Part shown: positions 20,313-20,747 of the stretch, piece by piece
Numbering within the stretch: position 1 is the stretch's first letter
Layout: the number at the start of each line of letters is the position of its first letter
Source: Escherichia coli
GTDB taxonomy: Bacteria > Pseudomonadota > Gammaproteobacteria > Enterobacterales > Enterobacteriaceae
NCBI RefSeq assembly: GCF_003334765.1
Contig: NZ_QOWT01000049.1
DNA length: 20,747 bases
Strand: one strand, 5' to 3'
Notes under the pieces: model-generated
Seen by the model: only the letters and a program-made list of their open reading frames with translations
What the model was told of the DNA's origin: nothing
Databases searched by the model: none
Made by a program: the position numbers and the translations under genes

Positions 20313-20426
20313 CAGAGACTCTTAAAATATAAAACTGAAGGTCTTCGGTAAGGGGGAGTGTATTAGACGTCAACTAGTTTTGCCGACTGGCGCGAGCCTG
20401 TTTAAGATTCTGTGTAAATGCCTTTC

Positions 20427-20747
20427 TCAGAAGTGACCGTCCAGGCGGTCACCGAACTCGATAATAAAGCGGCTCATTGCCATTCGCCAGTCCTTCAACG
20501 GCATCGTCCATTTCTGGGACGCAGACTGGATTGCCAGCCACACCACTTTTTTCACCGAGTCGTCTGTCGGGAACACTTTACGCTTTTTGATCGCATGGCG
20601 GATCACGCTGTTTAGCGACTCGATGGCATTCGTCGTATAGATCACTTTGCGGATGTCCGTTGGATAAGCGGTAAGCGTACAGCGAGGGCCGTATTGACGG
20701 GGATGTGTTATTCAGCTGGCAGTGCTATGCGCCACGGAAGCAGTTCG
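20427..20747 (-). pseudogene. IS256-family (Mutator-type) transposase, 3' portion, running off the window edge and probably decayed
   Basis: Minus-strand translation ...YPTDIRKVIYTTNAIESLNSVIRHAIKKRKVFPTDDSVKKVVWLAIQSASQKWTMPLKDWRMAMSRFIIEFGDRL matches the conserved C-terminal IYTTNxIESLN...KKWTMP signature of IS256-family transposases. A hand translation finds an in-frame TGA (complement of about 20712-20714) upstream of it. Confidence 0.6.

Follow-up and report, generated by a model that had tools for sequence, protein, structure and literature searches.

A Probable One-ended IS1414 Stump in Nested Insertion Sequence Debris 3' of pic in Escherichia coli

The 20,747-nucleotide stretch of Escherichia coli DNA analyzed here (contig NZ_QOWT01000049.1 of RefSeq assembly GCF_003334765.1; referred to below as the window) ends, just beyond the autotransporter gene pic, in a segment whose minus strand encodes the C-terminal part of an IS256-family transposase. 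An earlier note on this DNA had read positions 20313-20747 as a decayed copy of such a transposase gene, interrupted by an in-frame TGA and marking the right boundary of a genomic island. The locus raises the questions of which element the fragment comes from, how it was separated from the remainder of that element, and whether it lies at the edge of an island. IS1414, reportedly described by McVeigh and colleagues in 2000, is said to be the astA/EAST1-carrying IS256-family insertion sequence of E. coli, and the 117-kb pheU pathogenicity island of EAEC 042 was reportedly described by Dudley and colleagues in 2006 and by Chaudhuri and colleagues in 2010. The astA (EAST1) gene lies inside the IS1414 tnp gene, and truncated or inactivated copies of IS1414 are frequent in E. 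coli (PMC12585946).

RESULTS

Identity and Extent of the IS1414 Remnant

The right end of the window is composite, and its features, in order from pic to the window edge, are as follows.

16158..20276, plus strand: pic, encoding the serine protease autotransporter Pic, 1372 aa (ORF list and RefSeq annotation of the identical 042/O104:H4 region)
20277..20360, plus strand: 3' flank of pic, 84 bp, from pic to the ISEc10 terminus
20361..20393, plus strand: terminal 33 bp of ISEc10 (IS21 family), 100% identical to L012:2501-2533
20394..20670, minus strand: right-end remnant of IS1414, 277 of 1314 bp (alignment to intact IS1414)
20394-20423, minus strand: terminal inverted repeat of IS1414, intact (30-nt arms at both ends of the reference)
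20427-20670, minus strand: 3' end of the IS1414 transposase gene, aa 323-402, with stop codon TGA at 20429-20427
20671..20747, minus strand: end of ISEc8 (IS66 family), first 77 bp, 100% match from ISEc8 base 1
20710-20708, minus strand: stop codon TAA that closes the C-terminal tail of ISEc8 tnpC, …ELLPWRIALPAE (frame-2 translation)
20712..20714, minus strand: in-frame TGA, within ISEc8 DNA and outside the IS1414-derived sequence

The reference used for IS1414 is an intact copy on an ETEC-type plasmid (L007:2002-3315), a copy of 1314 bp that is bounded by terminal inverted repeats of 30 nt and codes for a transposase of 402 aa (WP_000343720.1). Aligned with this reference, the minus strand of window 20394-20670 corresponds to the right-end 277 bp of the IS256-family element, nt 1038-1314 or 21% of its length, with 275 of 277 positions identical (99.3%; L007:2002-2278; E = 2e-140) and no gaps, and it is identical at all 277 positions to the IS1414 copy in strain RM10740; the remnant is free of indels and stops relative to the IS1414 copies, and none of its substitutions is private to it. 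The 301-bp stretch that holds it has matches in 2146 of 5426 complete E. coli genomes. The earlier assignment of a nonfunctional IS256-family fragment is borne out by these alignments, with IS1414 as the specific element; of the interval 20313-20747 that had been given for it, the part at 20394-20670 stands, and the rest has to be reassigned to the pic flank, ISEc10 and ISEc8.

Translation of the minus strand from 20747 gives RTASVAHSTAS, a stop, ITHPRQYGPRCTLTAYPTDIRKVIYTTNAIESLNSVIRHAIKKRKVFPTDDSVKKVVWLAIQSASQKWTMPLKDWRMAMSRFIIEFGDRLDGHF, and a second stop. The IS256-family C-terminal motif to which attention had previously been drawn (…AYPTDIRKVIYTTNAIESLN…QKWTMP…) is present in this translation, and the matches are beyond chance both for the DNA and for the 80-aa remnant translation, which aligns with positions 289-336 of the 338 in the NCBIfam profile NF033543 (IS256 family) with E = 1e-13. 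The score of the remnant, 50.9 bits, is below the curated cut-off of 150 for this profile, against 423.9 bits for the intact IS1414 transposase, and the remnant is not a complete IS256-family transposase by this measure. The ORF list has one entry in the frame of the motif, of 72 codons, which starts with a GTG at 20645 and spans 20427-20645 on the minus strand; the RefSeq annotation of 042 and O104:H4 treats the equivalent of window 20427-20678 as a pseudogene ("transposase, incomplete, missing N-terminus"). The DDE triad of the IS1414 transposase is presumably D166/D232/E339, an assignment made from where the motifs lie and from what is generally known of IS256-family transposases; only E339, in TTNAIES, is kept in the remnant, D166 and D232 being gone. 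The inverted-repeat arm at 20394-20423 is the sole one, no second arm being present in the window or the 042 island. The astA ORF maps to nt 788-904 of the IS1414 reference and thus lies outside the remnant. A stretch beginning MPSSR in frame 2 of the remnant was considered as a relic of astA and was ruled out, astA mapping at least 134 nt upstream of the retained part. A scan of the region of the remnant at the Rfam gathering threshold found no RNA family.

Adjoining Elements

Downstream of pic, positions 20287-20310 fold into a terminator-like, GC-rich hairpin of 10 bp, with TTTCT after it (centroid fold −18.1 kcal/mol); a consensus promoter/terminator scan of 20150-20747 called nothing, this hairpin included. 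Homology to the 3' flank of another pic allele, that of strain SCU-101, which we take to be of the UPEC picU type, stops at 20335. The 25 bp at 20336-20360 (TGAAGGTCTTCGGTAAGGGGGAGTG) separate the end of the SCU-101-type flank homology from the ISEc10 terminus. Compared with the full ISEc10 of about 2.4 kb, just the terminal 33 bp are kept here, and in an ISEc10 copy of 2409 bp they correspond to nt 1-33 of the terminal inverted repeat, which is 48 nt long. The matches to this end in 586 records share that starting base, and the piece is oriented with its outer terminus toward pic and its inner side cut by the end of IS1414.

On the opposite side of the IS1414 remnant, the ISEc8 terminus GTAAGCGTACAGCG… (GTAAGCG…) starts at 20671, and ISEc8 DNA continues past the window edge; in another, independent ISEc8 copy, an unrelated flank extends up to the identical GTAAGCG. 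Both a GTAAGCG-type terminus and TnpC C-terminal homology, the marks by which the IS66 family was recognized, are found in 20671-20747. The extended ISEc8 fragment aligns with positions 259-384 of the 387 in the NCBIfam profile NF033517 (IS66 family) with 145.7 bits, which is under the full-length cut-off of 180 because the piece is a fragment. Compared with full ISEc8, the stump is without tnpA, tnpB and most of tnpC, and in RefSeq a pseudogene ("IS66 family transposase, missing N-terminus") starts at the equivalent of window 20708. The ISEc8 stump is 492 bp long in 042 (99.8% identity), where it is cut by the terminus of ISEc43; in O104:H4, 692 bp of the ISEc8 reference are aligned (681 bp of genome DNA, one gap), followed by istA of IS100.

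Junctions and Their Distribution

There are four consecutive joints, between the pic flank and ISEc10 (20360/20361), ISEc10 and IS1414 (20393/20394), IS1414 and ISEc8 (20670/20671) and, 492 bp further on in 042, ISEc8 and ISEc43, so that the stack reads pic, ISEc10, IS1414, ISEc8 and then ISEc43 (042) or IS100 (O104:H4). The junction sequences in the stack are GCCGACTGGCGC joined to GAGCCTGTTTAAG and GGATAAGCG joined to GTAAGCGTACAG; the position of the IS1414/ISEc8 joint is precise to 1 bp, as either element may have contributed the G at 20670. At each joint the interior of the older element abuts the exact intact terminus of the next, and because this holds each time the joints are the work of transposases, as opposed to random breaks or decay by point mutation. 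Over its last 471 bases the window matches 42 complete E. coli chromosomes at 100% identity, among them those of EAEC 042, 55989 and the O104:H4 outbreak lineage; since the pic-to-ISEc8 stack is identical in these 42 genomes, it is not an assembly artifact.

A sequence search across the 117-kb pheU island of 042 found no further IS1414, ISEc10 or ISEc8 DNA, and the rest of IS1414 was likewise sought in O104:H4 and was not found there; for ISEc8 and ISEc10 the same searches turned up nothing but the end pieces. Among 5,426 complete E. coli genomes, none has a longer piece of IS1414 3' of pic, and at this place no genome in the collection searched carries IS1414 in complete form, or a complete ISEc8 accompanied by a target duplication. 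The one variant is shorter and occurs in the O121 strain 201805972 (NZ_CP119441.1, 325000-340000; positions 381-645 and 5514-5537), where pic has the same pic-ISEc10-IS1414 junctions. In that strain the IS1414 piece stops at nt 233, and a complete IS66-family element has entered it at nt 220; this element contains an IS21 element in turn, and 8 bp of target DNA, CGCTGTTT, are duplicated on its two sides. Comparison of the two forms shows that their common ancestor carried at least 277 bp of IS1414, eroded later and separately in each lineage. The pic island of 201805972 also carries an iha fragment and sigA and looks similar to a she island.

Other Features of the Window

The window is collinear with 4924369-4946333 of the 042 chromosome save for one IS30, and in 042 pic, the IS nest and the aai genes follow the order annotated for the pheU island. 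The two sequences differ by 2 gap openings and 2 mismatches; the 1.2-kb IS30, which in 042 lies between two IS3-family fragments, is missing from the window at ~13410-13413. The window must accordingly derive from a near relative of 042 or from a different assembly. In its left 12.7 kb the window holds a block of defense genes (1918-12699, plus strand; PADLOC) and two RNA matches, listed here.

753-858, plus strand: RNAI, ColE1-type replication antisense RNA (Rfam gathering level, 59.9 bits)
1721-1800, minus strand: isrK (Rfam gathering level, 56.8 bits)
1918-4785, plus strand: DrmD-like SNF2 helicase (PADLOC)
4787-5791, plus strand: IetA (PADLOC)
5801-8188, plus strand: IetS (PADLOC)
8198-9826, plus strand: type III restriction-modification Mod (PADLOC)
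9829-12699, plus strand: type III restriction-modification Res (PADLOC)

The gene for Mod is one intact ORF of 542 aa in the window, whereas the 042 RefSeq annotation has two overlapping CDS. The RNAI match, together with a nearby fragment annotated in 042 as "replication initiation protein," suggests that a plasmid remnant may lie inside the island. The left flank of pic, 12788-16157, also consists of IS debris, with IS3-family fragments, an integrase-core fragment, an IS110-family transposase ORF (14295-15371) and a 72-nt fragment of a type I restriction endonuclease gene (042 annotation), and homology to the pic locus of O104:H4 begins only at window 15979. Inside pic there is an antisense ORF of 534 nt (17736-18269, minus strand; 177 aa), and 534 nt is the size of set1A, the gene for the A subunit of ShET1. 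According to the 042 genome paper, the setAB genes are contained in pic on the opposite strand (PMC2808357).

DISCUSSION

The feature 3' of pic is, with high probability, an inert, one-ended stump of IS1414 that arose through serial transposition of insertion sequences into one another. ISEc10 would have arrived first, downstream of pic; IS1414 would then have inserted 33 bp from the end of ISEc10, ISEc8 would have inserted into IS1414 at nt 277/278, and ISEc43 (in 042) or IS100 (in O104:H4) would have inserted into ISEc8. Deletion or rearrangement in the IS nest would later have removed the distal half of every nested element; that these halves were lost follows from the failure to find further DNA of the three elements across the 117 kb of the 042 island. 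A series of nested insertions in this reconstructed order, with the distal halves deleted afterward, is the route that we favor, and we consider it somewhat the better supported account of the stack. The O121 element with its target duplication is direct proof that IS66-type elements do transpose into the IS1414 stump, and the suggestion of the earlier note that the region was assembled by insertion sequences agrees with a neighborhood made of IS debris.

Each one-ended junction could also have been made in one step by intramolecular transposition, that is, by IS-mediated adjacent deletion, in which an ISEc8 copy located further to the right would attack the interior of IS1414 and delete the DNA between them, IS1414 having acted on ISEc10 in the same way. 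Such events would leave all three stumps with only their pic-proximal part, as is the case, and would remove the complementary halves, which are missing from the whole of the 042 island; exact-terminus joints with no visible target duplication are the expected product. Since no intermediate with a full ISEc8 and a duplication was found, adjacent deletion stays a live alternative. However, the IS66-family element that entered the same stump in the O121 strain did so by simple insertion with an 8-bp duplication, the ends of the ISEc8 stump differ by lineage, so that later deletions can explain the missing halves, and a single later deletion is a more parsimonious assumption than three adjacent deletions in succession, all running one way. 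Under nested insertion, a complete ISEc8 would once have lain between copies of an 8-bp duplication of the IS1414 sequence …GATAAGCG, with the remaining 1037 bp of IS1414 beyond it. We regard adjacent deletion as possible, with a chance well short of even, and nested insertion with later loss as the preferred account.

An island that ends on its right at this fragment, after capture at the edge through insertion sequences, is highly improbable. In favor of such a boundary are the location of the fragment at the right end of the window, after the last visible cargo gene (pic), and the IS debris on the left side of pic, but the comparison with 042 places the stump well inside the island. In that strain the pheU island extends over 117 kb from the tRNA-Phe gene (pheU, 4948842-4948917) to near cadC at ~4831300, and the stump, at ~4924446-4924722, is internal, about 24 kb from the pheU end. 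The tRNA-Phe gene and the integrase (4947382-4948917) are about 24 kb to its left, and the island goes on for about 93 kb to its right, up to the cadC-proximal end; in this direction there follow an IS nest of about 6.5 kb, the aai type VI secretion cluster and a second type VI secretion cluster and, further on, agn43, a CbtA/CbeA toxin-antitoxin module and an integrase remnant next to cadC. Instead of core genome, a tRNA/integrase end or an att repeat, island genes adjoin the stack on both sides in 042. The stack is followed by an IS nest and a VasL gene in O104:H4 too, and the pic module that this lineage has in common with the window, with homology from 15979 on, runs through the IS1414 stump into ISEc8. 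This layout agrees with the pheU island of 117 kb in the literature, to which the aai locus belongs, Pic being Ec042-4593 and aai Ec042-4562-4577 (PMC2808357).

The proposal that an IS256-family copy decayed in place by point mutation, with the TGA as a nonsense mutation in the transposase gene, can be set aside almost entirely. The TGA had been placed at about 20712-20714 and is indeed found at 20714-20712, it shares the frame of the IS256 motif, and mutational decay of IS1414 copies is common in E. coli (PMC12585946). However, it is positioned 42 bp past the end of the IS1414 homology at 20670, beside the true stop codon of ISEc8 tnpC, and is not a lesion in a degraded transposase gene: the identity with IS1414 stops abruptly at 20670 and is replaced by 100% identity with ISEc8 from 20671, the apparent residues ITHPRQYGPRCTLT upstream of the motif differ from those of the IS1414 transposase, in which AYPTD is preceded by …SRSWQANWPNLATFF, and the retained 277 bp, matched base for base in RM10740, are free of indels, stops and private substitutions. 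Point-mutation decay is in this way already refuted by the alignments, by which the IS1414 piece is judged to be truncated and neither point-mutated nor frameshifted. An intact full-length transposase in an extended sequence had been named in advance as the observation that would speak against a degraded copy, and extension to the right in 042 and O104:H4 reveals none. As a caution for similar cases, it should be noted that an in-frame stop near the edge of a window may come from a different, abutting element and not from mutational decay.

The stump is predicted to make no transposase and, by its structure, cannot be mobilized as an insertion sequence; with a single inverted repeat, neither of the two D residues of the triad and nothing promoter-like close by, it is best read as inert. 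We give hardly any credence to its being kept for a function, as a C-terminal transposase peptide (72-80 aa) that interferes with IS1414 or as an orphan repeat that titrates transposase, since, although 42 genomes from different lineages carry the stack without any change and many E. coli carry an active IS1414 (PMC12585946), that conservation is explained by the recent horizontal spread of the pic module (99.9% identical over 4.8 kb), a promoter-like site is absent from 20150-20747 in the consensus scan, the O121 strain has a shorter, interrupted version of the piece, and RefSeq treats the piece as a pseudogene. If it were true, a dominant-negative peptide or a transposase sink acting in trans would influence the amplification of astA/IS1414 in pic-positive EAEC.

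IS1414, ISEc8, ISEc10, the pic-setAB locus and the pheU island have all been described previously and the stump is annotated pseudogene debris, so that the nesting map at base level and the shared scar are tidy but unsurprising. The stack travels with the pic-setAB module and in all likelihood has no function of its own. The scar formed by ISEc10 (33 bp), IS1414 (277 bp) and ISEc8 accompanies the pic allele of 042, 55989 and O104:H4, and it is usable as a marker for the horizontal spread of pic-setAB between the 042, 55989/O104:H4 and O121 she-like pic-sigA backgrounds.
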